This document shows, in pieces, positions 2,466 through 20,371 of a stretch of 64,000 nucleotides of DNA. Position 1 is the first letter of the stretch. Each line of letters opens with the position of its first letter. The position numbers were made by a program, and so were the translations under genes. Location: assembly GCA_964479165.1 (NCBI GenBank), contig CAYZJO010000002.1:265493-329492 (forward strand), written 5' to 3'. Origin of the DNA: an uncultured Dehalococcoidaceae bacterium. Lineage in GTDB: Bacteria; Chloroflexota; Dehalococcoidia; UBA2979. A model generated the notes under the pieces. The model was not told where the DNA came from. It worked only from the letters and a program-made list of their open reading frames with translations, and made no database searches.

Positions 2466-2489
2466 GGTGATGCCTCGCTCATTCCTCGG

Positions 2490-2954
2490 TTAGTCCTCGC
2501 CGATGAGGTAGAAGGGATAGACGAGCGTCCGGTCGTCCTTCGTCGCGCGGATCTGGTAGCCGATCTCGATGTCCACCCAGCCGTGCGCCGGCGTCGGCAC
2601 GATCTCGATGTTCACCACGTCGATGCGCGGCTCCCAGAACGCGAGCGCCTCTTCGACGTAGCGGCGCATGTATCCGAACGTCGTCGCGTTCAGCGGAGCG
2701 AAGACGAGCTCGTGGATCTGGCAGCCGAACGTCGGCCGCATCCGCCGCTCCCCCGGACGCGTTCCGATGATGATGCGGATGGCCTGCTCGATGTCCGTGT
2801 CGTAGCGCGCCATCGCGATGCCGCCGCGCGCACGGCTCACCGACGTCAGCTCGTAGGGCCTCCGCAGATCGACACGCACCGGGAAATGCCAGCCGACGCC
2901 GACAATCTGCTCCTCGACGTTGCCGTTCCGGCCGTTGCCGTTGCTCATCACCAT
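2490..2954 (-). CDS. GPW/gp25-family baseplate wedge protein (Afp9-like)
   Basis: 154 aa. IEQAIRIIIGTRPGERRMRPTFGCQIHELVFAPLN matches the GPW_gp25 core. Alternative start at 2948. Confidence 0.85.
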   Translation of the reverse strand: MVMSNGNGRNGNVEEQIVGVGWHFPVRVDLRRPYELTSVSRARGGIAMARYDTDIEQAIRIIIGTRPGERRMRPTFGCQIHELVFAPLNATTFGYMRRYVEEALAFWEPRIDVVNIEIVPTPAHGWVDIEIGYQIRATKDDRTLVYPFYLIGED

Positions 2955-2979
2955 CGCGGCGCGCTCCTGATCGCGTTGC

Positions 2980-4722: not shown

Positions 4723-4724
4723 CG

Positions 4725-5369: not shown

Positions 5370-5383
5370 CGCCGGTCCTCCTC

Positions 5384-7789
5384 CTACGTCCAGCGCTCGC
5401 CGCGGCCGGCGCGCTCGCGTTCGACGACGAAGCGGCGTCGCAGCCGCGTGTAGATGGCCTGCGCCAGGCGATCGAGTGCCTGCGCGTCCGGCTCGGCGGG
5501 GGCTTCGGCACCGGTGTCGGAGGCGGGCGTGCTCTCGGGAGGCTCCGCCATCTCCGCGCGCAGGACCGCAACGGGCCCCTCCGACCGTGCCTGCCGGAAG
5601 ACCTCCTCGTCGGCTGCTGGCGCGGTGGTGTGACGGGTTATCGAGGGCTGCTCGGCGCGCCGCACGGCCGCCTCGACGCGGGGGGACGGCGTCAGAGGTG
5701 GCGCACTACGGGGACTCGCCGCCCCGGGCGCAAGTCCGAGCTGCCGCGCAAGCACGTCGGCGTGCACCGTCTGAGGGCGGGCGTCAGCCGGCGCGGGCAT
5801 CGATTCGGGCGCCGGGCGGCGGAAGACGCGACGTACCTCGCTGGGCGCGGGGGCTTCGGCGCGCGGACTTCGGTGCAGCAACGTGGGGGCCGCGGGACTC
5901 GTCGGCTCCGTCACCCGTGCTGCGAGGTCCACCGCAGGCGACGCTGACGCCGGCGCCTCGATGCGAGCCTGCGCGGGCGGCGCAGCGGCCGGGGGGTCGA
6001 ACGGGCGCTCACGAAGAACGAGCTCGGGTGGTGGGGCAGCGGCTGTGCGACGGCTCTGCGGTGCAACATCCCTGATCGGCTCGGCTGGCCCGAGCGACTC
6101 GCTGGGTCGGGCCGCTGCAACCACTTTCGCGCCGGCAACCAGCGCTGCCGTCATGTGTGCTCGCAGCTGCTCAGAGTCTGGCGCGGCGCCTGCATCCATC
6201 CGAGCAGTGAGCTGCAGCGGGATCGGGCCTTCCGCGCGGGCGCGCTCCTCCTGCACCGTCGACTCGCCCGGCGCGATATCTGGTGGGGCCGCAGGTTCAG
6301 CCACAACCTCGTCGAGGTGGAACTCGTGGCGGAGGAGGAGACGCGACTCCAGCATCGGTGGCGAACTCACGGCCCTCTCAGGCTCTGAAGTCGCCGAGGT
6401 TCGCGCAGGCTGCTGTGCTCGAGCCGTCGTAGTTGTCGTCGCGGTGGTGCCTGGCTCCGGGTGTCCCGAGATACGACGAAGAACGCGCCGAACGAGCGAC
6501 GGCCCTGGCGATGCCGGCTGCTCGGACCCGACCGCAGGAGGGGCGGGCGCCGGTCCCGGCCCGAGTGCAGGCGCAGGATCGTCTCTCGCGACGGCTGGCT
6601 GCGTCCCCGGCCCCCCGGCAGCAACCTCGATGCGCGGTGCGACCGGACGAGCCTCCGCGCCCTCGCCCTGATCGAGCGGTCGGGGCACGGGGTCGGCGCT
6701 CACCAAACGCTGCACGCTGACCGCTTCCGCCGGACCAGCCTCGTGGCGCAGCTCAAGACGGACAGGCGGCACGTCGCGCGAAGGCGGCGTCTTGTCCGCA
6801 TCGTCGCGCAACGTGGGAGCACTCGGGCGTTCGTCGCTGGCCGGCCCCTCCATCACGTCCTCCCCAACGACAACGTGCGGGGTCTTCGCGGGAGGCGTGG
6901 GCTCCGAGGCAGGCTCCGCAGCGTCGGACGGAGCCGGTGCTTCGCGGCGAAACACGCGCCGAGCGAACGTGGCCAGCGGCGACGTCGCGCGCGCGGCGGG
7001 TTCCTCGGCGGTCGGATGTTCCGCGTGCTGGGTGGCCGGGGTTGCCGAGGCCGGGGTGGGCTCGACGCTGGGCTGGCGCATCAGCGCGGATGGCGAAGCC
7101 TGGAGCGACGCCTCGTCCTCATGCGCAGGGTGGCGCGCGACGAGTCGCCCCGGTTGTGTCGTGGAAGCGGGCGGCGGAGCCGACGTTCGCGCCTCGGCGA
7201 CGGGCGGAGGCTCGGAGACGACAGGTGACGCGTACCTCGATTCCGCCTCAACCGCCCGCGCGGCCATCGACCGCGGCCGTGGAGGTCGGGCGGACGCGTC
7301 GATGCCCGGCTCGGGACGCGGGTCCAGCAACCGGAAGATGCGCCGCACGAAGGGAACGCGGGGCGCGGGAGTGCTCGTGGTCTGCACCACCGGCGCGTCG
7401 ACGTCGCCGGCCTCGCCCCCGTCCGCGGGACCGAACGGCTGCGCGAGGCGCGCGAGCGACGCTGCCGTCGGCGACTGGATCGTGAGCACGGGGCGCTCCA
7501 GCCGCGTCGCCGGCTTCAACGGCTGGCGGAGCGCGGGATGAGCCTCGGGGGTGGTGAGCGTGCGCGCGACCCTCGTGCGCGCGGGACTGCGCTGCGCCTG
7601 GCGCAGCAGCGCGATGCCGGGCGTACGTCCGAGGCGTGTGCCCATCGTTGGCACGTCAGGGTTGTCGCCCCACGCGCCGGGGATCGTCAGCCCCTCAATG
7701 CGGCGCTCTGCCTCGCCATACCAGTCCCGCGAGGCCAGCCCCTCCGAAGGCGTCTTGGCTGCGCCGTTGGTGGTGTTCACGTTATCCAC
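5384..7789 (-). CDS. Pro/Ala/Arg-rich low-complexity protein; candidate tape-measure / tail length-determination protein (Afp14-like)
   Basis: 801-aa ORF with no stops, tightly packed between the second tube gene (8-nt overlap, GTG start) and the LysM gene. Its position (tube, chaperone-like gene, TMP, gpX, gpD) mirrors phage and eCIS synteny. The composition is highly biased, so the assignment is positional and compositional only. Confidence 0.45.
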   Translation of the reverse strand: MDNVNTTNGAAKTPSEGLASRDWYGEAERRIEGLTIPGAWGDNPDVPTMGTRLGRTPGIALLRQAQRSPARTRVARTLTTPEAHPALRQPLKPATRLERPVLTIQSPTAASLARLAQPFGPADGGEAGDVDAPVVQTTSTPAPRVPFVRRIFRLLDPRPEPGIDASARPPRPRSMAARAVEAESRYASPVVSEPPPVAEARTSAPPPASTTQPGRLVARHPAHEDEASLQASPSALMRQPSVEPTPASATPATQHAEHPTAEEPAARATSPLATFARRVFRREAPAPSDAAEPASEPTPPAKTPHVVVGEDVMEGPASDERPSAPTLRDDADKTPPSRDVPPVRLELRHEAGPAEAVSVQRLVSADPVPRPLDQGEGAEARPVAPRIEVAAGGPGTQPAVARDDPAPALGPGPAPAPPAVGSEQPASPGPSLVRRVLRRISGHPEPGTTATTTTTARAQQPARTSATSEPERAVSSPPMLESRLLLRHEFHLDEVVAEPAAPPDIAPGESTVQEERARAEGPIPLQLTARMDAGAAPDSEQLRAHMTAALVAGAKVVAAARPSESLGPAEPIRDVAPQSRRTAAAPPPELVLRERPFDPPAAAPPAQARIEAPASASPAVDLAARVTEPTSPAAPTLLHRSPRAEAPAPSEVRRVFRRPAPESMPAPADARPQTVHADVLARQLGLAPGAASPRSAPPLTPSPRVEAAVRRAEQPSITRHTTAPAADEEVFRQARSEGPVAVLRAEMAEPPESTPASDTGAEAPAEPDAQALDRLAQAIYTRLRRRFVVERERAGRGERWT

Positions 7790-8237
7790 TCGGGATCAGC
7801 CCCGCGTGTGCGAACTCGAGGGTCTCGATGGCCGCGTCGTTCGACGTGACGTTGAGCGCGGGACCGCTCCACTTCACGGGGAACGCGTCCGAGAAGTCCC
7901 AGCGGCGCACGGTCGCGCCCTCGGAGTCCGCGAGGATGATGCTGATCGGCTTGCGGGCCAACTCCCCGCGCGCCACCTCGAGGAACCAGTCGTACAGCTC
8001 GGTCGAGGCGAACACGGCCTGCTTGAGGCTGATGTTGTCGTAGCTCATACGGCCGGGAAACTGGTGCGCGTGCGTGTTGAGGCCGCCCTCCTCCCACTTC
8101 TCGACGGAGATCGTCGCGGTGAGGCCGCCGCACTCGGTGAAGATGCCCTGCACGCTGCCGTCGATCTCGACCATGAAGCTGAAGCCGAGGCCGATCGCCA
8201 CATCGTCGAGCGACTTGCTGTCGTAGAGGACGGCCAT
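7782..8237 (-). CDS. contractile-tail inner tube protein (Afp5-like, second tube paralogue)
   Basis: 151 aa starting MAVLYDSKSLDDVAIGLGFSFMVEIDG, homologous in pattern to the tube protein at 9137..9601 (MPQLYDSGAVSEDPLLGFAFYLDLES). Confidence 0.85.
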   Translation of the reverse strand: MAVLYDSKSLDDVAIGLGFSFMVEIDGSVQGIFTECGGLTATISVEKWEEGGLNTHAHQFPGRMSYDNISLKQAVFASTELYDWFLEVARGELARKPISIILADSEGATVRRWDFSDAFPVKWSGPALNVTSNDAAIETLEFAHAGLIPSG

Positions 8238-8451
8238 CGCCCGCTACCTCCAGCGCTCGATGCCACCGCCGCGGCGCTCGCGCTGACGCGCGAGGTCCTC
8301 GGCGAGCAGCCGGTAGACGCGCTCGGTGAGCTGGTCGAGGGCGCGCTCGGACAGGGCCGCCGGCTCTGCGGTCGGAGTCCCGGTGTTGGGCGCAGCCTCG
8401 ATGGGCTCGTTCATGCGGTCTCGGTTCCTTCGACGGCGCGGGCGTCGCGAC

Positions 8452-8714
8452 TCACGAACGCCCGGCGTTCATTCGCTCGTTGATGCGGCTGATCTCCTCA
8501 GCCCAGGCGCGGCGCTCCCGGTGCTCGAGGCGCAGCACTTCGTCTCGCGGCCAGTGGAAGTGGTACGAGACGAAGGCTGCCTCCTCCAGCAGTTGCTGCT
8601 CCGGGTAGCCGACGGCGCTCCAGTGCCGGCCGAGCCGCCGCAGCCCGAACTCGCCGAGCTCCTTGCTCAGCGTGTCATCGGCGGCAGGCCCGCCGCCGCG
8701 AGCGCCCGTTCCAG
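8452..8714 (-). CDS. -1 frame extension ORF; candidate transframe C-terminus of the upstream CxxC protein (tail assembly chaperone-like). It has no independent start codon.
   Basis: This -1 frame segment encodes a protein-like sequence (…LSKELGEFGLRRLGRHWSAVGYPEQQLLEEAAFVSYHFHWPRDEVLRLEHRERRAWAEEISRINERMNAGRS). There is no in-frame ATG/GTG/TTG after the stop of ORF 8667..9137. The only in-frame start (GTG 8823) would add a junk-like Arg/Gly N-terminus. Confidence 0.4.
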
Positions 8715-9137
8715 GAAAGGGTTCGGGGCTCCGCCGACCTCCACCGGCGCCGCCTCGGCGGCCGGCAGAGGCAACGGCGCATCGTCCTCCTCGAGCGACA
8801 TCGGGACGAAGTGCTCGCCGCACGCCGGGCAGCGGACGCTGCCGCTGTCGTCCACGAGCTCGTTGCGCTGCCGGTAGAACTCCTGGAGGAACGCGAGGTC
8901 CGTCGTGAACAGCCCCTCGATCACCCCCGTGTCGACCTGCGGCAGCGTGCCGAGCTTCGTGATCACGCGCGCCAGCAGCACCACCGTGTGGTACGCGGGG
9001 TTCTGCCGGACGCGCGGGTCGCGCAGCGGCGTGATCTCGTCCATCGCCGTCGCAAGCCGCATCGTGCCCTTGCGGTGCAGGTTGCCCGCCCGGTCGACGA
9101 AACCTCGCGGCAGGAAGAACTCGAACTCGGTTTGCAT
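8667..9137 (-). CDS. eCIS-associated hypothetical protein with a CxxC motif (RCPACGEHF); candidate tail-assembly chaperone. Zero-frame product is 156 aa.
   Basis: Its start overlaps the upstream tube gene stop (TGATG). It lies between the two tube genes. I recognise no named domain. Confidence 0.6.
   Translation of the reverse strand: MQTEFEFFLPRGFVDRAGNLHRKGTMRLATAMDEITPLRDPRVRQNPAYHTVVLLARVITKLGTLPQVDTGVIEGLFTTDLAFLQEFYRQRNELVDDSGSVRCPACGEHFVPMSLEEDDAPLPLPAAEAAPVEVGGAPNPFLERALAAAGLPPMTR
8715..8721 (-). promoter_or_regulatory. candidate -1 programmed ribosomal frameshift slippery heptamer C CCU UUC (Pro140-Phe141 of ORF 8667..9137)
   Basis: X XXY YYZ pattern in the zero frame. After a -1 slip the reading continues PGTGARGGG...LSKELGEF in the 8452..8823 frame. 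A 7-bp GC hairpin (cggcggc/gccgccg, 8679..8698) lies 16 nt downstream. Confidence 0.35.
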
Positions 9138-9601
9138 CAGCTCACCCTCTTGATGCCCTCATGCACGATGGTGATCTCCTCGACGCCGAATTCATTCGAG
9201 TCGACCTTGAGCGAGGGACCGCTGATCTTCGAGGGCCAGGCGTTCACGAAGTCCCAGCGAGCAACGGGGTTGTACTCGGAGTCCATCATCGTGATGGTCC
9301 CGTTGGTGCGGGCCTCCCTGACCTTGCCCTCGTTGACCTTCTGACGCCAATCCCAGAGTTCCATGTTGCTGGTGATGCCACGCTTGAGCGTGATGTCACC
9401 CCACTTGAGCTTCCCGGGAACCTTGAGAATGACCGCGTTCCCGTCCTTGTCGACGACCTTCTGCTCCACAACCTCGGTCTCGGCGCCGATGCCGGAGACC
9501 TCAGTGAAGAACCCACCGCCGGCGCTTTCGAGGTCGAGGTAGAACGCAAACCCGAGGAGCGGATCTTCCGAGACGGCCCCGGAGTCGTAGAGCTGTGGCA
9601 T
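9137..9601 (-). CDS. contractile-tail inner tube protein (Afp1-like)
   Basis: 154 aa. The pattern LGFAFYLDL...FTEVSGIGAETEVVEQK...PGKLKWGDITLKRG...ELWDW is typical of eCIS / T4 gp19-like tube proteins. Confidence 0.85.
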   Translation of the reverse strand: MPQLYDSGAVSEDPLLGFAFYLDLESAGGGFFTEVSGIGAETEVVEQKVVDKDGNAVILKVPGKLKWGDITLKRGITSNMELWDWRQKVNEGKVREARTNGTITMMDSEYNPVARWDFVNAWPSKISGPSLKVDSNEFGVEEITIVHEGIKRVS

Positions 9602-9656
9602 GTGCTGTTCCTTTCGCGGTCAGACCGCCGAAACGCGTGCGGCTGCGAGCCGGGCG

Positions 9657-11267
9657 CTACTCCTCGGCGCCCGGCGTGATCTGGCTGATGCGGAAGACAA
9701 CGAACTCGGCGGGTTTCACCGGCGCGATGCCGATCTCACAGACGAGGATGCCCGCGTCGATCATGTCCTGCGTGTTCGTCTCCGAGTCGCACTTCACGTA
9801 GAACGCCTCTTGCGGCGTCGCGCCGAAGAGCGCGCCCTGCGTCCACGTGCGGTTGAGGAACGCCGTCACGTCGCGGCGGACCTTCGCCCAGGTGCGCTGG
9901 TCGTTCGGCTCGAAGGGGACCCACTGCGTGCCCTGCTCGATGGAACCCTTGATGTAGTTGAAGAGCCGCCGCACGTTGAGGTAGCGCCACTCCGACGCCG
10001 CCTCGGCGAGCGTGCGCGCGCCCCAGATGCGGATGCCTCGACCCGGGAACGAGCGGATGCAGTTCACGCTCTGCACGTTCAACGTGCCGAGCTCCGCCTG
10101 CGTCAGGCTCGTCTCGAGATCAATGGCGCCCATCACCTCCTCGTTGGCCGGCGCCTTGTGCACGCCGCGCCGCGAGTCCGTGCGCGCCCATACTCCGGCG
10201 ACATGCCCGGACGGCGGGATGAACGACGCCGTCTTCGCTGCCGGGTCGTCGACCTTGATCCACGGGTAGTAGAGGACGCCGTAGCCACTGTCGCTCACGA
10301 GGTTCGCCTGCTTGCGCCAGTTCTCCATCTCCTGCGGAGACAGGCCCGGAGGCGAGTCGATGATCGCGACGCGATCCTCCATGCGCGTGCAGTGCGCGAT
10401 GAGCTGCTTCTGGACGGAGACCACGCCCTCCATGTCGATCAGGCCCTCCTGGAAGGCCTTCCACAGGTCGGGGATGGCGATCATCGTGACGTCGTCGAGC
10501 ACCTCGAGGCCGTCGATGCCCTCGCGGCGGGCGACGTCGCCCTGGAAGTCGGACGGGGAGACGGCGGTGACCGTCTCGGCGCCCTCGGCGAGGTTGTACG
10601 TGCCGACCGGCGGGACGCGGTTCGCGATGCTCACGCCGCGCGGCTGCAGGTCCTCGACGCTGATGAACATCGAGCCGCCGGACTCGGCGTTGATGACGTC
10701 GACGACGTAGCGCGCGTCGCTACGGCTGAGCGACAGGTCCTCGAAGGACTCTGCCGGGTACCCGGGCGCGCGCACGGTGATGCGGAAGCGGCCACCACTC
10801 TCGGATGCCTCGGGCGCCGGAGGCGCGTCCTCAGACGGCGCCCCGTCGCTGCCAGCGGGGGGAGCCGGCGGCGGCGCCGTTGGCTGGTCCTCGATCTCGA
10901 TGCGGACGTCGTTTCCCTGGGTGCCGGTCAGCTTCGAGGTGAAGCGGAGCGACTCCTGGGGCGATGCACGCCCCGGCAGCGCGAGCTGAGCGGGTGTGCT
11001 GTCGCCTTCACCGCCGATGCGGATGACGTAGCAGTTGCCGCCGCCGTTCATGAAGAAGCCGTACACCGCCAGCGGCGTGTACGAGCGGGTGAACCCGCCG
11101 AACGTCTCCTGGTACTGGGTCCAGTTCGTGACTCGGACGGCGCGGCCGACCGGGCCCTTCTCGGTGAACCCGACGAAGGCCGCGACCGACGTGCCGATAC
11201 CCTCGATGGGGCGGCTGCCGCTGGGGACCTCCTGCACGTATACGCCAGGCGCCTGGTAGGTAACCAT
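9657..11267 (-). CDS. contractile tail sheath protein (Afp2/3/4-like)
   Basis: 536 aa starting MVTYQAPGVYVQEVPSG..., the canonical sheath N-terminus. An RBS (GAGGAGAGG) lies upstream. Confidence 0.9.
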   Translation of the reverse strand: MVTYQAPGVYVQEVPSGSRPIEGIGTSVAAFVGFTEKGPVGRAVRVTNWTQYQETFGGFTRSYTPLAVYGFFMNGGGNCYVIRIGGEGDSTPAQLALPGRASPQESLRFTSKLTGTQGNDVRIEIEDQPTAPPPAPPAGSDGAPSEDAPPAPEASESGGRFRITVRAPGYPAESFEDLSLSRSDARYVVDVINAESGGSMFISVEDLQPRGVSIANRVPPVGTYNLAEGAETVTAVSPSDFQGDVARREGIDGLEVLDDVTMIAIPDLWKAFQEGLIDMEGVVSVQKQLIAHCTRMEDRVAIIDSPPGLSPQEMENWRKQANLVSDSGYGVLYYPWIKVDDPAAKTASFIPPSGHVAGVWARTDSRRGVHKAPANEEVMGAIDLETSLTQAELGTLNVQSVNCIRSFPGRGIRIWGARTLAEAASEWRYLNVRRLFNYIKGSIEQGTQWVPFEPNDQRTWAKVRRDVTAFLNRTWTQGALFGATPQEAFYVKCDSETNTQDMIDAGILVCEIGIAPVKPAEFVVFRISQITPGAEE

Positions 11268-11342
11268 GACCTCTCCTCGCTGCTCTCCGCTCGGAGCGCC
11301 GGCGTCCTCGCCGAGGTCTCCGCGCTGCTGCTCCTGATGCCG

Positions 11343-12222
11343 CTAGTCCTCCGACCGCTCCCCTTCGCCTTCGGAGGGTTCGTCGCCCTCCGCAGTCGCG
11401 AGATCGAGCGTGAGCACGCTGCCATCCGCGTACGCGCCGGCGGGTTCTTCCGACGCGAGCCGAAGGATGTCTCCATTGATGGCCACAAGTGCCGCCGTCG
11501 AGCCGCGGCGGACGCCGCGCAGCTCGAACGTGCCGTCCGCGCGGCTGGTCGCCGCTGAGCGATCCATCCGCACCTGCGCGCCAGCGACGGGCTCGCCATC
11601 GCGCACGAGGCGTCCGGTTATGTCGACCGGGATGTCCGGACTGACCGAGACGGGCGGCGGCATGACGATGCGCCGCTCGAGGACGAGCGGGCCCTCGCGC
11701 TGGATCTCGAGCTCGATCGGGATCGTGACCGACACCCGGATCGACGGCCGCAGGTCGTTGTCGAGGACGCTCCAGATGTCCACGATGTCCTTGATGGCCC
11801 CCGGCTGCGCGACCATCATCGGGATCTCGTAGCTCTCGGGAATGACGCCGTCGAAGGCCTCGAGGGGCAGCGTGAGGTGGCGGAAGAAGACGCGCGCCGC
11901 CCCCGTCAGCAGGCGGTGCTCGTCCTCGACCTCGTTGGACCAGGCGGTCACGAGGTACGAGCACTCGACGCGGATCGGGGGCCGCTTGTCGACGAAGCCG
12001 CCGTTCATACGCCCGGTCTCCCAGGGCGCGGGACGCAGCGTCCGGTTCTCCTGCATGTGGTAGAGGAAGAGGTTCAGCGTCGGACGCGTGAGCCTCGACG
12101 TGTTGTCGCGGCTGGGCACGTCGAAGGTAATGTCGAAGCCGCCCGCCTCGATGCGCTCGACGACGGTCGGCATCTCGGTGACGAGCAACGTACGCAGCGC
12201 GCGGTCGAGATCATCGATCATG
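11343..12222 (-). CDS. DUF4255 (Pvc16_N) tail terminator/cap-like protein (Afp16-like)
   Basis: The ORF track extends to 12506, but the conserved family N-terminus MIDDLDRALRTLLV...PTLNLFLYHMQENRTLRP begins at the ATG at 12220-12222. The upstream 95 codons are an Arg/His-rich in-frame artefact. Confidence 0.65.
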
Positions 12223-12316
12223 GCGCGCGCACCGTAGCGGCACGCGATTGCTGAATCGTTGCTTGCTCGTTGATAGGCGGGCTCGCGGCCGCCAACGGTC
12301 GCCACCCGGCCGGCGA

Positions 12317-12646
12317 CTACGTCCCGAGGACCTGCACCTGCCCCGGGTTCGCGATGATCGCCGGTACCCCCGGCGACCCGCCCATGCACAGGCCGATGCT
12401 GCTGGCGAGCAGCACAGGGATGTTGTTCACGAAGGTGCTGACGGCGGGCATCGTCCACTGGATGCTGACGCACGGCGCTGGCGCGCCCGCGATGTTGAAC
12501 ACGCATCCGGCGATCATCGTGACGTCACTCACCACGAGGACCGGGGCACCGCCGATGAGCACGGTCGGGTTGCTCGGCACAGTTGTCGCCTGCCCACCAT
12601 GAGGGCACATGATGGTCGCGGACGCGTTGAGGATCGGCGCCGGCAT
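12317..12646 (-). CDS. PAAR-like spike-tip protein (Afp10-like)
   Basis: 109 aa, Gly/Pro/Ala/Val-rich, with MCPHGGQ...VLIGGAPVLV motifs typical of PAAR-like domains. An alternative start at 12610 would give MCPHGG. Confidence 0.55.
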   Translation of the reverse strand: MPAPILNASATIMCPHGGQATTVPSNPTVLIGGAPVLVVSDVTMIAGCVFNIAGAPAPCVSIQWTMPAVSTFVNNIPVLLASSIGLCMGGSPGVPAIIANPGQVQVLGT

Positions 12647-12675: not shown

Positions 12676-13488
12676 CTAAGCGCCTGCCGCCGCGCTCGGG
12701 CCGTGCGGGCTCCGGTGCAGCGACATCTGGATACCTTCCTCATCTTCTTCCGGCACGTCTTCCCGGTGGAGCGAGGGTGCGAGCTCGGGCTCCTCTTCCT
12801 CTTCGGGAAGCTCGCGTGCCAGCGTCGAGGACATCTGCAGCTCTTCCTCAGGCAGCTCCTCCCGGGCCAGCGCCGAGGACATCTGGAGTTCCTCCTCCGG
12901 CGCTTCCTCGCGGGCGAGCGAGGTGCTGATGCTCGAGGACGGCGCGGACGCGAGCTCCTTCGAGAACGCCGACGCTTCCTGCTCCGCGGCGTCCTGCGGG
13001 CTGCTCACCCGCATGTCGCTGCCGCCGACTCCACCTTCACCGCCGCGCTGCTGCACGACGTGCGTCAGCTCGTGCGCGAGGAGTTGGTCGCCGCCGCTCG
13101 TGCCGGGCTGGTACTTGCCCTGCCGGAAGAAGATGTCCGACCCCGTCGTGAACGCGTCCGCCGACACGGCGTGGTTGAGCAAGTTCGCCTCGGAGTCGTC
13201 GTGCACGCGCACGTCGCTGAGGTCCGCGCCGAGCGCACCGCCGACACGTCGCTGCACCTCCGTGTCGAGGGAGCGACCGCCGCCCCGCTTCGACTCGATG
13301 GCATCCTCGACAGTCGAGTCGACAGCCGGATGCTCCTCGTCATGCTCGGACCGCAGCAGTCGCTGGACGGCCGCGTTACCGAGGGTCGAGACCAGCGGCG
13401 GCCGCGGGCGCGCTGCCTGGGGGCCGTCGGCCTCCGTCTCGCGCTGCCTCGCCCGTACCTCGTCCGTGAGTTCGTGGTCGAGAGTCAT
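12676..13488 (-). CDS. DUF4157 (eCIS-associated, HExxH zinc-metallopeptidase-like) protein with acidic C-terminal tandem repeats
   Basis: GRSLDTEVQRRVGGALGADLSDVRVHDDSEANLLNHAVSADAFTTGSDIFFRQGKYQPGTSGGDQLLAHELTHVVQQ matches the DUF4157 core. I prefer the start at ATG 13486-13488 (MTLDHELT, RBS AGGAGA) over the 13539 start. N-terminal TLGNAAVQRLL motif. Confidence 0.8.
   Translation of the reverse strand: MTLDHELTDEVRARQRETEADGPQAARPRPPLVSTLGNAAVQRLLRSEHDEEHPAVDSTVEDAIESKRGGGRSLDTEVQRRVGGALGADLSDVRVHDDSEANLLNHAVSADAFTTGSDIFFRQGKYQPGTSGGDQLLAHELTHVVQQRGGEGGVGGSDMRVSSPQDAAEQEASAFSKELASAPSSSISTSLAREEAPEEELQMSSALAREELPEEELQMSSTLARELPEEEEEPELAPSLHREDVPEEDEEGIQMSLHRSPHGPSAAAGA
12800..12945. repeat. 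About three imperfect tandem copies of a 45-nt unit inside the DUF4157 gene
   Basis: The DNA units (…gccagcgtcgaggacatctgcagctcttcctc… / …gccagcgccgaggacatctggagttcctcctc…) encode LAREEAPEEELQMSS / LAREELPEEELQMSS / LARELPEEEEEPE. Confidence 0.6.
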
Positions 13489-13519
13489 GATGTCTCTCCT
13501 CGATTGCCGGTTCCGACGC

Positions 13520-15712
13520 TTAGCGTCGGGCCTCTTCATACCACTCTGCGAAGTCGGCCGTCGTAACGAGGCGGCCGAGCTTCTGATACTCGCGACGCGC
13601 CGCGCGGATCAGGTGGCGCATGCCGATCGGTCCGCCGTCCGCAGCCGCGAGGAACGCCGCCAGCACGGCGATGTTGCGGATGTTGCCGCCGGCCACTCGG
13701 AACTGCCTCGCGGCGAAGTCCAGGTCGAGGTCATCGGCGAGCGGCGCGTTCGTGCGGAAGTTGAGCTCCCAGATGCGGCGGCGGTCGTCCTCGTCCGGCA
13801 CGGGGAAGTCGATGATCGCCTTCAACCGCCGCAGGAACGCGTCGTCAAGGTTGGCCCGCAGATTGCTAGAGAGCACGACGATGCCGTCGTACTCCTCGAT
13901 CTTCTGGAGGAGGTAGCTGACCTCGATGTTGGCGTAGCGGTCGTGCGAGTCGCGCACTTCGGTGCGCTTGCCGAAGACGGCATCCGCCTCGTCGAAGAAG
14001 AGGATGGCGCTCGCGCCGCTGGCCTCGTCGAATACGCGCGCGAGGTTCTTCTCCGTCTCACCGATGTACTTCGAGACCAGGCCCGAGAGGTCGATCTTGT
14101 AGACGTCGAGGCCGAGCTCGCCAGCGATCACCTCGGCGGCCATCGTCTTGCCGGTGCCGGACTCGCCGACGAACAGTGCCGATACGCCACGCCCGAGGGA
14201 CGCCTTGCCCGCAAACCCCCACTCCTCGTAGACCACGTGCCGGTGCAGCACCTGGAGCGCGATCTCTTTGAGTTGAGTGATGCGCTCTTCCGGCAGGACG
14301 ATGTCCTCCCAGCGATAGCGCGCCTCGATGCGCTGTGCCACGTCTGCGAGCCGCGGCTGCGACTGCATCCGCGCCGCCGTCTGCAAGGCCTCGAGGCCCA
14401 CGCTCTCCTCCCCGCGCCACGTACCGAGGCTGCGCGCCATGCGCGCTGCCGACTCGATGTCGGCTGCACCGAGGCGGAACGTGGCCGCGAGCTGGTCGAG
14501 GTCGTCTGTGGCGGCCGCGTCGCCGGCGGCGGCGGCCCAACGCCTGCGGGACTCCTCGTAGGTCGGCTCGTGCACCTCCATCACGAGGTCGAGTACGGGT
14601 TCGCGCGCGGGCGGACGCGGGGCGCGGCCGCCGAAGAGCACCGGCAGGGGGTGATCCTCAAGGGTGCGCGCGATCAGCCGCCCGAACGGCTCGATCGCGC
14701 CGGGCCGCTCGCCGTCGTCGTCCCAGCCCTCGAAGTAGAGCGCGAGCCCGAGGACGCAGGCGTCGCGACGCAGCCGCTGGAGTGCCCGCGGGGCGTCGGC
14801 GGGAGCGCGTTCACGCAGTGCGCCTGTATCGATGCTGGCGAGCCCAAGGCCGAGTTCGGTGCACGCGACACCGATGCGAGCACGCTTCTCCGCGACCCAC
14901 CGCCCTGCGAGGTAGACGCGCGCGTCCATGCGTCCGCGCAGCACCTCGGCGAGCCTTGCGCCGTCCGCAAGGTCCGAGGGATACGGCTCCACCTCGAGCT
15001 CGACCAGTCGTGCAATGCCCTCGAGCCGCGGGTCGAGACTCGGCGTGGCGTCATCCCTGCCGAGCAGCAGCGTCGCGACGTGAGGGTCGAGCTGCACGGC
15101 GTGGGCGAGCAACGACGGCGCGACGGCTGCAGCGTCGTCGGCGGTGGACAGCAGTTCGTACGTGATCAGGGGCGCGTTGGGCTCGAAGAGGCGGCGCAGC
15201 GCCAGCGCCTCGCGCCGCCCATCCGCGATCAGGTCGAGCACGAGCCCGACCGTCGGACGCTTCCTCGTGACATCGTCGTTCACGTAGGCGAAGACCTTCG
15301 CGTACGCCTGGTCGAGGTGCGGCGCGAGCGCGACCACGAGCGCCTGGCGTTCCTCGGGCGAAAGCCCGAACGCGGCCACGAGACGCTCAAGCGGCAACGT
15401 CACCCCGGCTGCCACGGATGTAGCAGCGCGCGCGTCGAGGTCGGCGCGGGAGGCTGCGGCTGCTCGCCGCAGTTCGGCGAGTCCCCCCGGCTGCTCGTCC
15501 GGAACCCCGAGCAGGTCGTCAACCTCCTCGTCCGAGATGTAGAGCCCACGGTAGTCGTCGGCAGGACCGAGCGCGCGACGACGCCGGCCGCGCTCCACCT
15601 CGATGCGCAGGCGGAGCGCGAGCCAGCGCAGCTCCGCCTCGAGCTGGTCGAGCGACGACGCGAAGGGCTCCGGCGCCTCGATCGACAGCGGTGGTTCCGC
15701 GGTGAGCGTCAT
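13520..15712 (-). CDS. AAA+ ATPase of the eCIS (Afp15-like)
   Basis: 730 aa. Walker A GESGTGKT, ILFFDEADAVFGKR and the SSNLRANLDDAFLRRL sensor region at the C-terminus, with a long N-terminal domain as in Afp15/Pvc15. RBS GGAGAGG upstream. Confidence 0.9.
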   Translation of the reverse strand: MTLTAEPPLSIEAPEPFASSLDQLEAELRWLALRLRIEVERGRRRRALGPADDYRGLYISDEEVDDLLGVPDEQPGGLAELRRAAAASRADLDARAATSVAAGVTLPLERLVAAFGLSPEERQALVVALAPHLDQAYAKVFAYVNDDVTRKRPTVGLVLDLIADGRREALALRRLFEPNAPLITYELLSTADDAAAVAPSLLAHAVQLDPHVATLLLGRDDATPSLDPRLEGIARLVELEVEPYPSDLADGARLAEVLRGRMDARVYLAGRWVAEKRARIGVACTELGLGLASIDTGALRERAPADAPRALQRLRRDACVLGLALYFEGWDDDGERPGAIEPFGRLIARTLEDHPLPVLFGGRAPRPPAREPVLDLVMEVHEPTYEESRRRWAAAAGDAAATDDLDQLAATFRLGAADIESAARMARSLGTWRGEESVGLEALQTAARMQSQPRLADVAQRIEARYRWEDIVLPEERITQLKEIALQVLHRHVVYEEWGFAGKASLGRGVSALFVGESGTGKTMAAEVIAGELGLDVYKIDLSGLVSKYIGETEKNLARVFDEASGASAILFFDEADAVFGKRTEVRDSHDRYANIEVSYLLQKIEEYDGIVVLSSNLRANLDDAFLRRLKAIIDFPVPDEDDRRRIWELNFRTNAPLADDLDLDFAARQFRVAGGNIRNIAVLAAFLAAADGGPIGMRHLIRAARREYQKLGRLVTTADFAEWYEEARR

Positions 15713-15760
15713 GCCCTCTCCGAACGCTACCGGCTCAGTGTGCCGGATCGAGGTTGCGAG

Positions 15761-15779
15761 GCGATTGACGCGCGATTGA
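15761..15779. promoter_or_regulatory. direct repeats GCGATTGA-cgc-GCGATTGA (11-bp period), candidate SARP binding site / eCIS operon promoter element
   Basis: Located in the 73-nt gap between the SARP gene stop (15786) and the ATPase start (15712). The SARP family is known to bind direct repeats with 11-bp periodicity. Confidence 0.3.
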
Positions 15780-15785
15780 TGGGCG

Positions 15786-16799
15786 CTAATCGAGCCCGAG
15801 TTCGCTCAGCAGCGCCCGCGTCTCCTCGGACGGCGCAACATCGAACTCGGCGCGGAGGCGCTCCTCGCAGAGGCGGTACTGCCGCATCGCCTGGGCGCGG
15901 TTCCCCAGCATGGCGTGAGCGCGGACCACCCAGCGGTGCGCGGCCTCGTCGAAGGCGTCGCGCAGCACCAGCGTCTGGCCCAGCTGCAGCACTCGCGCCC
16001 ACTCCCCGCTCGCCGCGCCGTACTCGATCAGCCGCGCGACTGCCCACTCGTAGAGATTGCCGAGTGCCAGCCGCGGCTCGCCGGTCCATTCTTCTGTCAA
16101 GTCGGACTCGAGGAAGTCGCCGCCGTACTCCGCAAGTGCCGCATCGAGGCACGCCACCGCCTCGGCCTTCCGGCCCGCCGCGAACTCCGACTTCGCGCGA
16201 CCGACCGCCTCGCGGAACTCGACGGCGTCCACGTGCCACTCGAGCCCGCCATCGAGGCGGTACAGACCCTGCTCGACGAACAGCCCGCGACTTCCGTCGC
16301 CGTCACCCAGCCCCTCGCGAAGCCTCGAGCGGACGTGGTGCACGGCAATGCTGAGGTTGTTCGCACCTCGCGCGGGGTCGGAGTCCGGCCAGAACGTCTC
16401 GATGAGCGTCTCGCGCGCGGTCGGCCGCCCCGGCGTCAGCGCGAGGTAGGCGAGCAACTGGCGCGCCTTGCGGCTGCGCCAGCGATCGACAGGCCGCCCA
16501 TCGATGCTCAACTCGAACGCGCCGAGCAGGCGCACGCGGACCTCGGGAACCGGGGGCGCGGACGCCTCGACCTCGATCACCGGCGCCTGACGGGTGGCTG
16601 CCGCCTCGAGACGCGGAGCCACCAGCGCGAACAACCTCGCCTGCTCGCTGCGCAGTTCCGCGAGCTCGGCCCGCGTCTCGACCATCAGGCTGTGTAGCGC
16701 GTCGAGGCGATCGAAGACCGCGACGGCAGCGACATCGTCGGGCGTGCGGTCGCGCAGGACGAACGGCAATTGCGGTTGAGCGGCGAAGGCGATCCGCAT
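15786..16799 (-). CDS. SARP-family transcriptional regulator (OmpR-type winged helix plus BTAD domain)
   Basis: VRVRLLGAFELSIDGRPV...RKARQLLAYLAL...RETLIETFWPD...ANNLSIAVHHVRSRL followed by a TPR-like BTAD region. Co-oriented with, and immediately upstream of, the eCIS ATPase gene. Confidence 0.8.
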   Translation of the reverse strand: MRIAFAAQPQLPFVLRDRTPDDVAAVAVFDRLDALHSLMVETRAELAELRSEQARLFALVAPRLEAAATRQAPVIEVEASAPPVPEVRVRLLGAFELSIDGRPVDRWRSRKARQLLAYLALTPGRPTARETLIETFWPDSDPARGANNLSIAVHHVRSRLREGLGDGDGSRGLFVEQGLYRLDGGLEWHVDAVEFREAVGRAKSEFAAGRKAEAVACLDAALAEYGGDFLESDLTEEWTGEPRLALGNLYEWAVARLIEYGAASGEWARVLQLGQTLVLRDAFDEAAHRWVVRAHAMLGNRAQAMRQYRLCEERLRAEFDVAPSEETRALLSELGLD

Positions 16800-16933
16800 C
16801 GAGGAGCCTCGGTCGGGGAGACCGCGGACGCCGGCACCGTCTCTGCCTCGTGCTATGGCGGCGGCGGCGAACGCGCGGCATTATACCAACCGCACGGACG
16901 CACACCCTCTTGTCGTCGAACAGGATTCCCTCG

Positions 16934-19159
16934 ATGACTCAGTCTCGCCTCGGCGACCTCGGGACGGGCGGTGGCGGTCTGCCCTGGGGCAAGATCGGGA
17001 TCGGCGCGGGCATTGTGGCGCTGCTGCTCCTCCTGTTCTTCCTCGTCACCAGGGGCGGGGACGACGAGGAGTCGCTGGAGCAGGGACCGCAGTCAGCGGT
17101 GATGTGCCTTCCCGAGGAGGAAGTCGGCGCGTCCGCCGGCACCTCGGTCGCGACGCCCGCAACCACGGGGGCGGGCGTGGGCGTCGAGGGCGCACCACCG
17201 AAGATGGTGGGCGGCGTCGAGCTCTACTTCCAGAACGATCCGCGCTGGGCCAACACGGAGTACGCCTTCTCGACTGCCCTGCCGCAAGGCAAGGACTGGT
17301 GCGGCACCACGATCGGGCAATGCGGCTGCGCAATGACCTCGCTCGCGAACGTCCTCGCCCTCTTCGACATGGTCAGCACCCCGATGGGCGAACCCCTCCA
17401 GCCCGAGAGCTTCAACGGCTGGCTCAACCGCGACGCTCAGTTCCAGGGTCAGTGCTTCATCAGCCCGGGCTACTACTGTGGCGAAGTCATCTGGACCGAC
17501 ATCCAGGCGTTCACGGCTCAGCGGCGACTGCAGGATCCGAGCCTGCCGCTCCTCCGTTTCCGCGGCCGGGGCAACGGCAGCGAGGCCGAGGTGCGCGCGG
17601 AGCTCGAGGCCGGACGGCCGGTCATCCTCGAGGTGCGCGGTCACTTCGTGCTCGCGGCCGGCCTCGAGAATGGCGAGATCGTCATCCAGGACCCGTACTA
17701 CCCCGAGCGCGATCGCTACGAGGACATCGCGCCGATGCTCATCAGCAGCCGCTTGTTCGAGGTGGCCGAGCGCGCGGGCGGCATCGTGGTCATGGCGCAG
17801 GGCGACACGCAGATCACCATCACCGACTCTGACGGCCGGGTCACCGGCACGACGATGGACGCCTCCGGCTCCGGCGAGACGCCGACCCCCGAGCCAGGCG
17901 AAGCAGAGATCCCCGGGTCGAGCGTCAACTTCGAGGACCGCTGGCGCGACCCGACCTGCACCGAGCGCGCGCCGGACCCCGACGACCCGGGCAACGTCCA
18001 GCTGTTCCTGCCGCACGCGGCGTCGGGCGACTACAACATCGACGCCCAGTTCCCCCCGGGCAGCGAACGCTGCATCGCGGTGTACTCCTACGCCGACGAC
18101 GGCACGGTCACGATCGAGATGATCTGCGGGACTGGCACCCTCGACGCAAACATCTCGTACTCCTCGGGCTCCTCAAGGTCGACTCCGACGCCGACACCGA
18201 GTCCGACCGCCACTCCGACCGCGGAAGCGACCGCGACCGCAACGCCGACACCGGAGCCCACGGAGGCACCGGCGACGGCCACCCCGACCCCGGAGCCGCC
18301 CACACCGTCGCCCACGGCCCCTCCGACGGCGACGCAGCCGCCGCGCACGCCGACCGCGGCGCCGACGCCAGTCGCACCAACGATCCAGTCGGTCACCTGC
18401 ACGCCCGCCTCGGTCTCCGTCGCCGCCTCGATTACGTGCCGCGCAACGGTCTCGGGGACGGCGACCTCGTACGCGTGGTCGTCGCAGGGCGTTCCGAGCA
18501 GCGGCGCGCAGGCCACGTTCACCACCAGCTTCCCCACGCCCGGTGCGAAACGCGTCGACTTCCGCGTGTGCAACGGAACGCGCTGCACGACGGGGTCCGC
18601 CAGTGTGACCGTGGTCGCGCCGCTCGATGCCTCGTTCAACTGCACGCCGACCAGCGTGAACGTGAATGCGAACGTGACGTGCACAGCCGCGAGGCAGGGG
18701 CAGGGGGCCTATAGCTGGAACGCAAGCGGCGGAAACCCGGCCAGCGGTGCCGGCACGACGTTTACGACGCGCTTCGGCACGGCAGGCTCCAAGACCGTCA
18801 CCCTCAACGTGTGCAACGCCTCTGGCTGTCAGCCGGCATCGAGGCAGATCACCGTGACGTCGCCGTTCACGGTCACCGCCTTCTGCAACCCGGGCCAGGC
18901 CACGTATGGGGACCCGGTCCACTGCGCAGCGCAGTTCAGCGGCGGCGTTCCGGAGACGTTCCAGTGGATCGTGGCGCCTGCCTCGGCCATCGAGTTCTTT
19001 GGCCAGGACACGCCGTCGTTCACCGTCTACTTCTACTCACTCGGCCAGTACACGGTCGCCGTGAACGTCTGCACCGAGTTCGGTTGTGCTGGAGACAACG
19101 TGATCATCACAGTCATCGAGGATGACTCCGACCCGCCGATCAACGGAACGCCTGACTGA
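16934..19159 (+). CDS. membrane-anchored secreted protein: C39-like (Peptidase_C39_2-type) cysteine peptidase domain, Pro/Thr-rich linker, three Cys-containing Ig/PKD-like repeats
   Basis: Start at ATG 16934 (MTQSRLGDL... then TM GIGAGIVALLLLLFFLV). LYFQNDPRWANTEYAF...CGTTIGQCGCAMTSLANVLALF resembles the C39_2 catalytic region. A linker TPTPTPSPTATPTAEATATATPTPEP follows. Three repeats of about 95 aa, each with CTP..V...TC.A...YSW...G..ASGA.TTFTT.F.T.G.K.V...VCN..GC. Confidence 0.55.
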   Translation: MTQSRLGDLGTGGGGLPWGKIGIGAGIVALLLLLFFLVTRGGDDEESLEQGPQSAVMCLPEEEVGASAGTSVATPATTGAGVGVEGAPPKMVGGVELYFQNDPRWANTEYAFSTALPQGKDWCGTTIGQCGCAMTSLANVLALFDMVSTPMGEPLQPESFNGWLNRDAQFQGQCFISPGYYCGEVIWTDIQAFTAQRRLQDPSLPLLRFRGRGNGSEAEVRAELEAGRPVILEVRGHFVLAAGLENGEIVIQDPYYPERDRYEDIAPMLISSRLFEVAERAGGIVVMAQGDTQITITDSDGRVTGTTMDASGSGETPTPEPGEAEIPGSSVNFEDRWRDPTCTERAPDPDDPGNVQLFLPHAASGDYNIDAQFPPGSERCIAVYSYADDGTVTIEMICGTGTLDANISYSSGSSRSTPTPTPSPTATPTAEATATATPTPEPTEAPATATPTPEPPTPSPTAPPTATQPPRTPTAAPTPVAPTIQSVTCTPASVSVAASITCRATVSGTATSYAWSSQGVPSSGAQATFTTSFPTPGAKRVDFRVCNGTRCTTGSASVTVVAPLDASFNCTPTSVNVNANVTCTAARQGQGAYSWNASGGNPASGAGTTFTTRFGTAGSKTVTLNVCNASGCQPASRQITVTSPFTVTAFCNPGQATYGDPVHCAAQFSGGVPETFQWIVAPASAIEFFGQDTPSFTVYFYSLGQYTVAVNVCTEFGCAGDNVIITVIEDDSDPPINGTPD

Positions 19160-19210
19160 CCGTCACCACCTCGCGCCCGACTCGGGGCTGGCATGGGCCT
19201 GGCTGGCGCG

Positions 19211-20371
19211 TTACGGGACGTTCCCGCCGTCCACTGAGACTTGCGCGGCGGCTTCGTCAGCTGCGATCTGGGAGCGGATACCCTCGGCCGCAGTCAGCGC
19301 TTCCTCCATGTCTTCGTCGCTCGTCCACCAACCGAAGTGGCCCTTCGGAACCACACCCAACGCCTCGAGACGCTCCTCGACGGGTGTGCCCGGCGCCTTG
19401 AAGTAGGTGCTCTCGAAGAAGATGAATGGCCCATCGCCGGGCTTTTCCGTCACCTTGAGCGTTGGCAGCCAATTCGCCCAGATGCCCCGCTCGATCTTGT
19501 CGGCGAGCGATGCCTCGTCCACCGCGGGTGGCTGCTTCATCAGTGGATTGCTCTTCAGCCAGCCGTCGAGCACTGTCTTCACGCTGGGAGGATCGATGTC
19601 GTTGAACTCCGACAACTCCCAGGAGTCGAGCTGGGTCTTTGCCTTGACGATCGTCTGCTTCACCTGACGCCATGCCGCGCTGACCGCATTCTCGATGCTG
19701 TTCTGGTATTCGAGCGGTGCGAGGTTCACCTTCTGCGCGCTCGGCGACAGCGCGGCCGTCGCAACATCGAAGCTCTTCCCTACGGCGGCCTGCAGGGCAT
19801 CTTCGAGCATCCCAGCAGTCTTAGCTCCAATCTTGGGGATGCTCGTCAGCGCCTCGCCCATGCCCCCACTCATCCCGGTTGCGATAGCACTGAACACGCT
19901 CATCACGACTGACAAGTTGAGTGCGTTCACGCGGGCTGAGGCGTTCACGGCGTCCTCGTGACGCCGGTACGCCGTCGAGTACGCGGTTCCGACGCTACGC
20001 GCGTAGATCTCCCACGCCGTCTTGTTGTCCTCGAACTGGTCGCCAGCCGTATCAATGATGCGGTACGTCTTGTTCCTCTTCTGCTCCCACTCGAACTCCT
20101 CAGCAGTGGGTCCGTCCCGCTGGAGCACCCGCGAGGTCACGGATGAGGGTGCAAGCAACCGCTGGACGTACGAGTTGCCGCGCGTCCGTTGGAGGTGTAG
20201 TACGTGCCCTGCTGAACGCCGGACGTCCGGCGGGAGAGGCGGGGTGAGACCGCCCGCGCCGGCGTGATCTCGGAGAGAGACCGCCTCGTCAGACGGTTCG
20301 GACTCGATCGGCAGACTGCGCGCGACCACGTCGGACCGAGCGTCTACGCGCTCCACGGAACCTTCGGCCAT
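19211..20371 (-). CDS. hypothetical protein, candidate eCIS cargo/effector. It carries an N-terminal LHLQRTRGNSYVQRLL motif shared with the DUF4157 protein, and an amphipathic Gly-zipper-like segment.
   Basis: The ORF track extends to 20968, but that upstream part is an Arg/Ser-rich in-frame artefact. The ATG at 20369-20371 gives MAEGSVERV... (386 aa). I recognise no enzymatic motif. The segment LNLSVVMSVFSAIATGMSGGMGEAL is hydrophobic. Confidence 0.5.
   Translation of the reverse strand: MAEGSVERVDARSDVVARSLPIESEPSDEAVSLRDHAGAGGLTPPLPPDVRRSAGHVLHLQRTRGNSYVQRLLAPSSVTSRVLQRDGPTAEEFEWEQKRNKTYRIIDTAGDQFEDNKTAWEIYARSVGTAYSTAYRRHEDAVNASARVNALNLSVVMSVFSAIATGMSGGMGEALTSIPKIGAKTAGMLEDALQAAVGKSFDVATAALSPSAQKVNLAPLEYQNSIENAVSAAWRQVKQTIVKAKTQLDSWELSEFNDIDPPSVKTVLDGWLKSNPLMKQPPAVDEASLADKIERGIWANWLPTLKVTEKPGDGPFIFFESTYFKAPGTPVEERLEALGVVPKGHFGWWTSDEDMEEALTAAEGIRSQIAADEAAAQVSVDGGNVP

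Follow-up and report, generated by a model that had tools for sequence, protein, structure and literature searches.

The 64,000-nt stretch of the uncultured Dehalococcoidaceae contig CAYZJO010000002.1 analysed here (the window; 69% G+C) holds a complete operon for an extracellular contractile injection system (eCIS) and two proteins that share a short N-terminal sequence of the form LQRxxGNxxVQRLL, which we call the box. One of the two is the small core DUF4157 protein of the operon, and the other is a 386-aa protein without DUF4157, encoded at 19211-20371. In metagenomes the box is a separable N-terminal module that heads many different C-termini, with or without DUF4157. A constant N-terminal module joined to variable C-terminal payloads is the architecture of polymorphic effectors, and the box carriers have it. 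We lean, with moderate confidence, towards the reading that the box is the core of a constant targeting module of DUF4157-type polymorphic eCIS cargo and that 19211-20371 encodes one such cargo, which would be loaded by way of this module.

A reading of the window from its sequence alone (hereafter the sequence-only reading) had placed an LQRTxGNxxVQRLL-type motif at about residues 50 and 57 of the two proteins, and both copies are found there. In the six-frame translation of the 64-kb window GNxxVQRLL, also in looser versions, occurs exactly twice, once in each of the two proteins. The occurrence expected from composition is 1.1e-4, and the probability of two or more is ~6e-9; chance similarity of the two boxes was rejected on this count and this probability. 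GNAAVQRLL of the DUF4157 protein lies at nt 13354-13380. The 386-aa protein contains HVLHLQRTRGNSYVQRLL at residues 56-73, the LQRTRGNSYVQRLL part of which corresponds to nt 20153-20194, and compared by hand its box agrees with the metagenome consensus given below at all but two defined positions. When the two proteins are compared by BLASTP, the box alone aligns (8/11 identical). Together with a profile alignment (hhalign) that covers residues 47-87 alone and with folds that differ, this bears out the claim that the two proteins are otherwise unrelated. The C-terminal domain of the 386-aa protein and DUF4157 are distinct domains, because the former also occurs downstream of an intact DUF4157 in a single polypeptide.

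The modular nature of the box is seen most clearly outside the window. Metagenome contigs were scanned with a degenerate DNA pattern for [LF]Q[RQH]xxGNxA[VLIM]QR[LMI][LF], which is blind to DUF4157; as the pattern carries ~41 bits by our own estimate, few chance matches are expected. The scan returned at least 123 distinct box-bearing open reading frames (ORFs) on at least 120 contigs, and the figures for box carriers that follow, on consensus, position, DUF4157 and C-termini, refer to those among the matches listed. Their consensus is (I/L/V)LxLQ(R/Q)(T/S)(I/V)GNxAVQR(L/M)L. Positions left free by the pattern are also conserved: I/L/V at -3 (85%), T/S at +3 (65%) and I/V/A/L at +4 (89%). The distance of the box from the start of the longest ORF has a median of 44 residues and a mode of 38. 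DUF4157 follows the box in 57 of 106 assessable ORFs (54%), at an offset of 16-187 residues, and is absent from the other 49 (46%). The 39 complete carriers without DUF4157 fall into 36 unrelated C-terminal clusters, and the C-termini recognised by Pfam comprise a barnase-type RNase with barstar, Hcp, PG_binding with a C39-like peptidase, DUF922, DUF4329, TPR and OmpA. At eight loci (L044, L059, L065, L106, L125, L166, L010 and L172) box genes stand side by side, often with near-identical boxes. The sequence-only reading had taken the common leader motif for a packaging or recognition signal. What stands of this is a separable N-terminal module heading many C-termini; the motif is family-wide, its adjacency to eCIS genes is not uniform, and its part in loading can be put forward as a proposal.

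Some of the individual carriers deserve mention. A 243-aa protein (L118, 1012-1740, plus strand) consists of a box followed by an Hcp domain, the tube protein of type VI secretion systems (T6SS), and would be a tube-like protein with a cargo-type tag. A single ORF (L089, 584-1441, minus strand) joins the box to a barnase-type ribonuclease and barstar, and is either a real fusion or an artefact of assembly or frameshift. The members of one sub-family (L049, L057, L078, L084, L102, L115, L120 and others) have all of the first 55 residues in common, beginning with M(R/Q/H)T(F/Y/I)AQK(P/Q)K..Q; in 9 of 10 of these proteins the first box residue is number 38, and DUF4157 may be present or absent. 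Conservation of the module in this sub-family thus extends beyond the box.

The strict DNA pattern had no match in viral contigs, and tblastn of the consensus leader had none in plasmids. The 9-mer GNxAVQRLL, searched for in the viral contigs, gave 29 matches, which are 28 unrelated proteins (the 'ALGNVAVQRLLGKGTV' family and others) and one true carrier, L044. One group of these phage ORFs (viral contigs L021, L024, L027, L032, L035, L040, L042 and L043), unrelated to box carriers, is large, up to ~800 aa in read-through translation, and carries ALGN(V/I)AVQRLLG(K/R)GTV. Since it is found in unrelated phage ORFs, the bare 9-mer is not diagnostic without the LQR half.

The core DUF4157 protein shows how the box relates to the domain that commonly accompanies it. 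Its ORF (12676-13539, minus strand) encodes 287 aa, and gene callers start at M18 to give the 270-aa form. The protein matches PF13699 with 108.6 bits and has the HExxHxxQ signature as HELTHVVQQ. The box lies ~30 residues upstream of the start of the PF13699 match. In the AlphaFold2 model the confident fold comprises residues 52-150 plus a helix at 167-181 (predicted local distance difference test score, pLDDT, >90), and the box is a low-confidence helix (residues 38-46, pLDDT ~56) in the flexible N-terminus, outside that fold. Of the 120 closest DUF4157 homologues, 106 have the looser pattern GNxx[VLI]xx[LM][LIV], which keeps a steady distance of 102-106 residues ahead of HExxH. In a 45-sequence alignment its G and N are the only positions without variation before about residue 64, in the region that precedes the stretch matched by PF13699. 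The sequence-only reading had allowed that the motif might be simply part of the DUF4157 family profile. This is half true: the box is a standard companion of DUF4157, with an invariant GN, and it lies outside both the Pfam model and the fold. On many contigs a small DUF4157 protein, with ~23 residues from the box to the start of the domain, is encoded between the AAA+ and the Pvc16_N/sheath genes, as in the window. In the eCIS of a Paraburkholderia megaplasmid the DUF4157 gene has a diverged box, LLKLQMRYGNQFVGRVI.

Two further elements of these proteins were observed. The C-terminal tail of the core DUF4157 protein (12676-12930, minus strand) is built of acidic repeats with the pattern ..(A/I)xRE(E)xPEEEELQ(M/T)S.., encoded in part by a tandem DNA repeat at 12811-12920 (48-nt period, 2.3 copies); this repeat type is present, in variable number, in most DUF4157 homologues. 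A second short conserved element, (P)GDxYEQEADRVAxxV, is found at ~12955-13000 of the window (minus strand) and also at L044 1839-4400 and L166 7262-7903. In small DUF4157 proteins it comes after HExxH, corresponds to the confident helix 167-181 and probably supplies the third zinc ligand, a Glu; in some box proteins without DUF4157 it directly follows the box.

The 386-aa protein has a disordered leader, the box, a short linker and an all-alpha C-terminal domain. It has no Pfam family at E <= 0.01, no NCBIfam match and no HExxH, as the sequence-only reading had said of the last; thus neither PF13699 nor HExxHxxQ is found in it, and Pfam finds no PVC-metallopeptidase in the polypeptide. A protein identical to it (P0001) is among the gene calls of 19-21 contigs. 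The leader was described in that reading as acidic and disordered, and rightly so: it has 10 D+E and 6 K+R in 56 residues, a net charge of -4, and a pLDDT below 50 for residues 1-43, and thus is modelled as a disordered, hydrophilic N-terminus of ~50 residues. Between 83%-identical orthologues the leader diverges, and the box and the C-terminal domain are conserved. The box is modelled as a low-confidence helix (residues 48-63) that is not packed on the C-terminal domain. In the predicted model the C-terminal domain is all-alpha plus one small hairpin. The hydrophobic, Gly-zipper-like segment pointed out from the sequence is indeed present at residues 151-175 and is moderately hydrophobic (maximum Kyte-Doolittle 19-residue mean 1.52), with a lower pLDDT of 55-75. 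One member of the C-terminal-domain family matches the Pfam SctB2 translocon model (E 7e-6), and the buried hydrophobic helix might conceivably give the family membrane activity.

A word-indexed homologue search with the 386-aa protein returned three close, near-identical relatives. Exhaustive HMMER searching of 1.84 billion cluster representatives returned 131 at E <= 1e-3, all matching over residues ~90-365, and these form an unannotated family. Four architectures occur in it: box, DUF4157 and C-terminal domain; DUF4157 and C-terminal domain; box and C-terminal domain; and C-terminal domain alone. At least 41 of the 131 representatives carry PF13699, with HExxH N-terminal to the C-terminal-domain match, and at least 13, the window protein included, have the box without DUF4157. 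Some members with the C-terminal domain alone are truncated gene calls, as for P0003, whose ORF has a leader and a box upstream. The sequence-only reading had nominated the 386-aa protein as a novel effector. Because homologues of its C-terminal domain are fused to DUF4157, one of them inside an eCIS operon, the nomination holds as that of a putative cargo. A PF03692 CxxCxxCC gene of ~220 aa directly follows two different family members (L013, 1842-2498; L014, 2195-2860); the two CxxCxxCC proteins are 57% identical to each other, no such gene is present in the window, and they may be immunity or accessory proteins.

The coordinates of the features in the window are collected in Table 1. The genes are transcribed in the order regulator, AAA+ ATPase, small DUF4157 protein, and then DUF4280 through baseplate J. 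The spike is encoded at 2980-4773 and the tube initiator at 4725-5369. BTAD regulators have been recorded as eCIS-associated (PMC8213781). Upstream of the regulator lie a plus-strand gene for a C39-like peptidase/PKD protein, the 386-aa gene on the minus strand and an AlkZ-like glycosylase gene. The 386-aa gene lies at the island's edge, with 3.5 kb between it and the AAA+ gene, and so has beside it an eCIS cluster with an AAA+ ATPase. Identical contigs show this arrangement of the 386-aa gene and the eCIS, as does a relative with 82% identity. The C39-like/PKD protein (16850-19159) is membrane-anchored, has no box and is conserved in relatives; a PG_binding and C39-like pair is the payload of one box-bearing protein elsewhere (L158). 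The 801-aa protein (5384-7789, minus strand), between the tube and the CIS_tube+LysM genes, had no match in Pfam or NCBIfam, and its position suggests a tape-measure-like protein.

Table 1. Features of the eCIS locus and of the two box-bearing proteins (window coordinates).
Feature	Coordinates	Strand	Remarks
eCIS structural operon	501..12646	-	Complete eCIS operon, from Pfam scans; in transcription order DUF4280 (PAAR-like), Pvc16_N cap, sheath, two gp19 tube proteins, DUF6760, 801-aa protein, CIS_tube+LysM, VgrG-like spike, gp25, baseplate J
Small core DUF4157 (PF13699, 'eCIS_core') protein	12676..13488	-	270 aa; Pfam E 1.8e-31
PF13699-matched stretch	13039..13269	-	Residues 91-167 of the 287-aa form, HELTH included
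Box PLVSTLGNAAVQRLL of the DUF4157 protein	13354..13398	-	Residues 48-62 of the 287-aa form
eCIS AAA+ ATPase, Afp15/Pvc15/Alg15-type	13520..15712	-	WHD plus AAA; Pfam
BTAD/SARP-type transcriptional regulator	15786..16799	-	Operon head; Pfam
386-aa candidate eCIS cargo	19211..20371	-	Disordered leader, LQRxxGNxxVQRLL box, short linker, all-alpha C-terminal domain
C-terminal domain of the 386-aa protein	19229..20110	-	Residues 88-381; helical with small beta hairpin, no known relatives
Hydrophobic Gly/Ala/Ser-rich helix LNLSVVMSVFSAIATGMSGGMGEAL	19847..19921	-	Residues 151-175; conserved in the C-terminal-domain family, consensus SIAFGVLTA..GALGW.GEA
Box VLHLQRTRGNSYVQRLL of the 386-aa protein	20153..20203	-	Residues 57-73; invariant in orthologues
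Leader of the 386-aa protein	20216..20371	-	Residues 1-52; net acidic, poorly conserved, predicted disordered

The linkage of box carriers to eCIS genes is mixed. A gene for a box and DUF922 without DUF4157 lies immediately upstream of core DUF4157 and Pvc16_N genes (L065), and another DUF4157-less carrier has a baseplate gene ~10 kb away (L121). The gene for P0130, which has the box, DUF4157 and the C-terminal domain, lies within an eCIS operon, where another box gene follows downstream. Near carriers without DUF4157, eCIS genes were found on 1 of 13 long contigs, plus one short operon fragment; several other neighbourhoods lie on contigs whose length permits no judgement. Orphan DUF4157 genes are frequent as well, a Streptomyces plasmid providing one example. 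Adjacency to an eCIS is therefore no family-wide rule, since many carriers, homologues and DUF4157 genes are orphans.

Several results weigh against the reading of the box as a cargo-targeting module and of the 386-aa protein as cargo. In the tblastn searches with the window's proteins, 12 of the 13 long contigs with DUF4157-less carriers had no eCIS structural genes. The closest outgroup homologue of the 386-aa protein (P0124/P0255, 50% identity) is an orphan with no eCIS genes within 10 kb, and the same holds for three homologue loci in genomes (Actinosynnema, Solirubrobacteraceae and Isosphaeraceae), which were found via an 8-sequence alignment of the C-terminal domain. With no eCIS genes within that distance, these homologues would have to be orphan cargo. 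The leaders of motif carriers elsewhere are mostly basic, with a median net charge of +3, so that the acidic leader is a local trait and no feature of the family. The box itself is a general, family-wide companion of DUF4157 and no coincidence specific to this locus, and its bare 9-mer arises by chance in unrelated phage proteins. As to toxicity, a sequence-profile search of the PDB with the 386-aa protein gave nothing significant, and neither this search nor Pfam or NCBIfam supplied a fold or family assignment in support of a toxic C-terminal domain. No immunity gene adjoins the 386-aa gene, there being no small same-strand gene downstream of it in the window.

Other explanations have been considered for the same observations. 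The DUF4157 metallopeptidase-like domain might dock on the box or cleave there, and the box would then not be a signal read by a loader. Docking would occur in cis in the fused proteins and, for effectors without DUF4157, in trans via the small core DUF4157 protein, which would act as an adaptor, chaperone or processing peptidase linking effectors to the spike and the tube initiator. This explanation overlaps with the one we prefer, and on present evidence we think it rather unlikely. It accords with the strong co-occurrence of the box and DUF4157, the presence of small DUF4157 proteins among core operon genes, the binding of Streptomyces lividans Sle2 (DUF4157) to the N-terminal region of the DUF4157-less Sle1 and to the tube initiator (bioRxiv 10.1101/2025.11.06.686954), and the autoproteolytic releasing role proposed for the PVC-metallopeptidase (Zhang et al., 2012, PMC3482391). 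The loading of AlgoCIS, however, requires the N-terminal domain and can dispense with DUF4157 (bioRxiv 10.64898/2026.05.27.728243), and 46% of box carriers lack DUF4157 in cis. The AlphaFold2 model, which leaves the box helix unpacked from the DUF4157 domain (pLDDT ~56 vs >90), and the variable offset between box and domain (16 to 187 residues) also weigh somewhat against it.

In a more distant explanation the box would be the mark of a wide family, of polymorphic toxins or surface proteins, whose members are exported by some other path or not at all, eCIS adjacency being incidental to DUF4157 ancestry and the 386-aa protein not being cargo. Most DUF4157-less carriers and many large DUF4157 proteins indeed have no eCIS genes beside them, homologues of the 386-aa protein occur as orphans among housekeeping genes, and an orphan DUF4157 gene resides on a Streptomyces plasmid. 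We nevertheless hold this to be improbable: DUF4157 is highly eCIS-specific (odds ratio 2614; PMC8213781), some box carriers lie inside eCIS operons (L065, L166), and the leaders inspected by eye, with no signal-peptide predictor run, have no Sec/Tat-type N-terminal hydrophobic segment. The contigs are also short, so that absent neighbours are weak evidence. The remaining explanation, that the 386-aa protein is a degenerate DUF4157 homologue minus HExxH with the box as residual family similarity, can appeal to the box being a normal part of DUF4157 proteins. It was rejected, and we give it hardly any credence: hhalign against the 45-sequence DUF4157 alignment covers only the box region, the modelled C-terminal domain is all-alpha vs the alpha+beta zincin-like fold of DUF4157, and at least 41 family representatives have that domain behind an intact DUF4157, so that the two are separate domains. 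The reading of the box as a modular tag and of the 386-aa protein as a candidate effector survives every computational test applied.

Short conserved N-terminal motifs are known to head polymorphic effectors of the T6SS, where the markers MIX, FIX and RIX have let orphan effectors be found. The box follows a similar marker logic in a different system, with unrelated sequences and a different adaptor logic. Closer comparisons come from eCIS themselves. In AlgoCIS, cargo needs the disordered N-terminal domain that precedes DUF4157 in order to be loaded into the tube lumen, loading can do without DUF4157, and the AAA+ protein Alg15 is needed as well; the loading sequence was reported as not conserved between systems, and no sequence motif was described (bioRxiv 10.64898/2026.05.27.728243). 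The targeting-module reading fits AlgoCIS because there it is the region upstream of DUF4157 that is needed for loading, and not DUF4157. The AlgoCIS cargoes Cgo1 and Cgo2 of Algoriphagus machipongonensis (PMC8894135), compared here by their described architecture and not by sequence, likewise have a disordered N-terminus, DUF4157 and a variable C-terminus and are encoded in the eCIS cluster, and the window has the same gene set as AlgoCIS, the AAA+ ATPase included. In contrast to AlgoCIS, a defined box is conserved here across phyla, and the 386-aa protein has no DUF4157.

With the PVC and Afp signals (Pdp1, Pnf and Afp18), heterologous proteins are brought into the eCIS by a hydrophilic, disordered tag of ~20-50 residues at the N-terminus, with involvement of the AAA+ proteins Pvc15 and Afp15 (cited in PMC11297309 and PMC11495950). 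The likeness to the window lies in the disordered N-terminal region and in the AAA+ ATPase gene in the system. No specific conserved sequence was detected in signals of this type (Danov et al., 2024, PMC11297309), whereas the box is a strict sequence motif; those PVC and Afp effectors also lack DUF4157, and the leader of the 386-aa protein has a net charge of -4 vs a slightly positive signal in PMC11297309. PVC-metallopeptidase polymorphic toxins have a constant N-terminus and variable C-terminal toxins, often no adjacent immunity gene, and many copies per genome (Zhang et al., 2012, PMC3482391). Box carriers share the constant N-terminus and the variable C-terminal domains. In those toxins the constant region is the metallopeptidase, whereas the box lies further N-terminal and persists in about half of its carriers without the metallopeptidase. 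By description, the pair of window proteins also resembles Sle1 and Sle2 of Streptomyces lividans, where a helical effector without DUF4157, encoded beside a CIS, has a small DUF4157 core protein as its partner. Sle1 has a predicted hydrophobic helical hairpin with remote translocon-like similarity (bioRxiv 10.1101/2025.11.06.686954); unlike the 386-aa protein, with its short leader and box, it binds Sle2 through a tape-measure-like coiled coil of 440 residues. The PVC-metallopeptidase polymorphic toxins, DUF4157 as an eCIS marker (Geller et al., 2021, PMC8213781) and N-terminal eCIS signals were thus known already; the sequence box and the putative effector family appear to be new. Full-text literature searches for the motif string found no prior description of the box, and it is not modelled by Pfam or NCBIfam.

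A model can be proposed for how the box may work. It would be the conserved core of an otherwise disordered N-terminal module of ~60 residues that marks DUF4157-type eCIS cargo. The box sits at a nearly fixed ~40 residues from the N-terminus, and a variable toxin domain would follow the module, either directly or after DUF4157. The carriers in the window are the small core DUF4157 protein, encoded between the AAA+ and the cap genes, and the 386-aa protein, a DUF4157-less member of a putative helical effector family. The box would form a short amphipathic helix in the flexible leader, which may be recognised by the Afp15/Alg15-type AAA+ ATPase, by the DUF4157 core protein with the tube initiator, or by both. 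By analogy with the literature on Alg15 and Pvc15, from which its loading role is borrowed, the AAA+ ATPase of the window is a candidate reader of the tag. Cargo would then be threaded into the tube lumen and, after injection, its C-terminal domain may act on the target, possibly on membranes via the buried hydrophobic helix. A bolder version of this model holds that the box is a sequence-defined cargo-recognition element, a helix of ~17 residues needed for loading and, with the leader, sufficient for the loading of heterologous proteins; that the C-terminal domain of the 386-aa protein founds a new family of membrane-active effectors; and that orphan cargo can be discovered by the box. We entertain this version as a tentative possibility, and would sooner expect some part of it to fail.

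Contractile injection systems of this class are being engineered as programmable protein-delivery devices, and recent papers on their cargo report neither a conserved signal sequence (PMC11297309) nor any conservation of loading sequences from one system to another (bioRxiv 10.64898/2026.05.27.728243). A strict and broadly conserved box at a fixed N-terminal position offers a mutational target, given the invariant GN, as well as a candidate minimal tag. It also provides a search key for cargo without DUF4157, which makes up about half of the carriers in the metagenome sample. For the C-terminal-domain family of the 386-aa protein, which comprises at least 131 protein clusters and had no annotation, a likely role can be assigned. 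If the bolder version is true, a sequence-defined recognition element would contradict the present view of the field that none exists (PMC11297309), and orphan eCIS cargo could be discovered genome-wide, about half of it without the DUF4157 marker used today.

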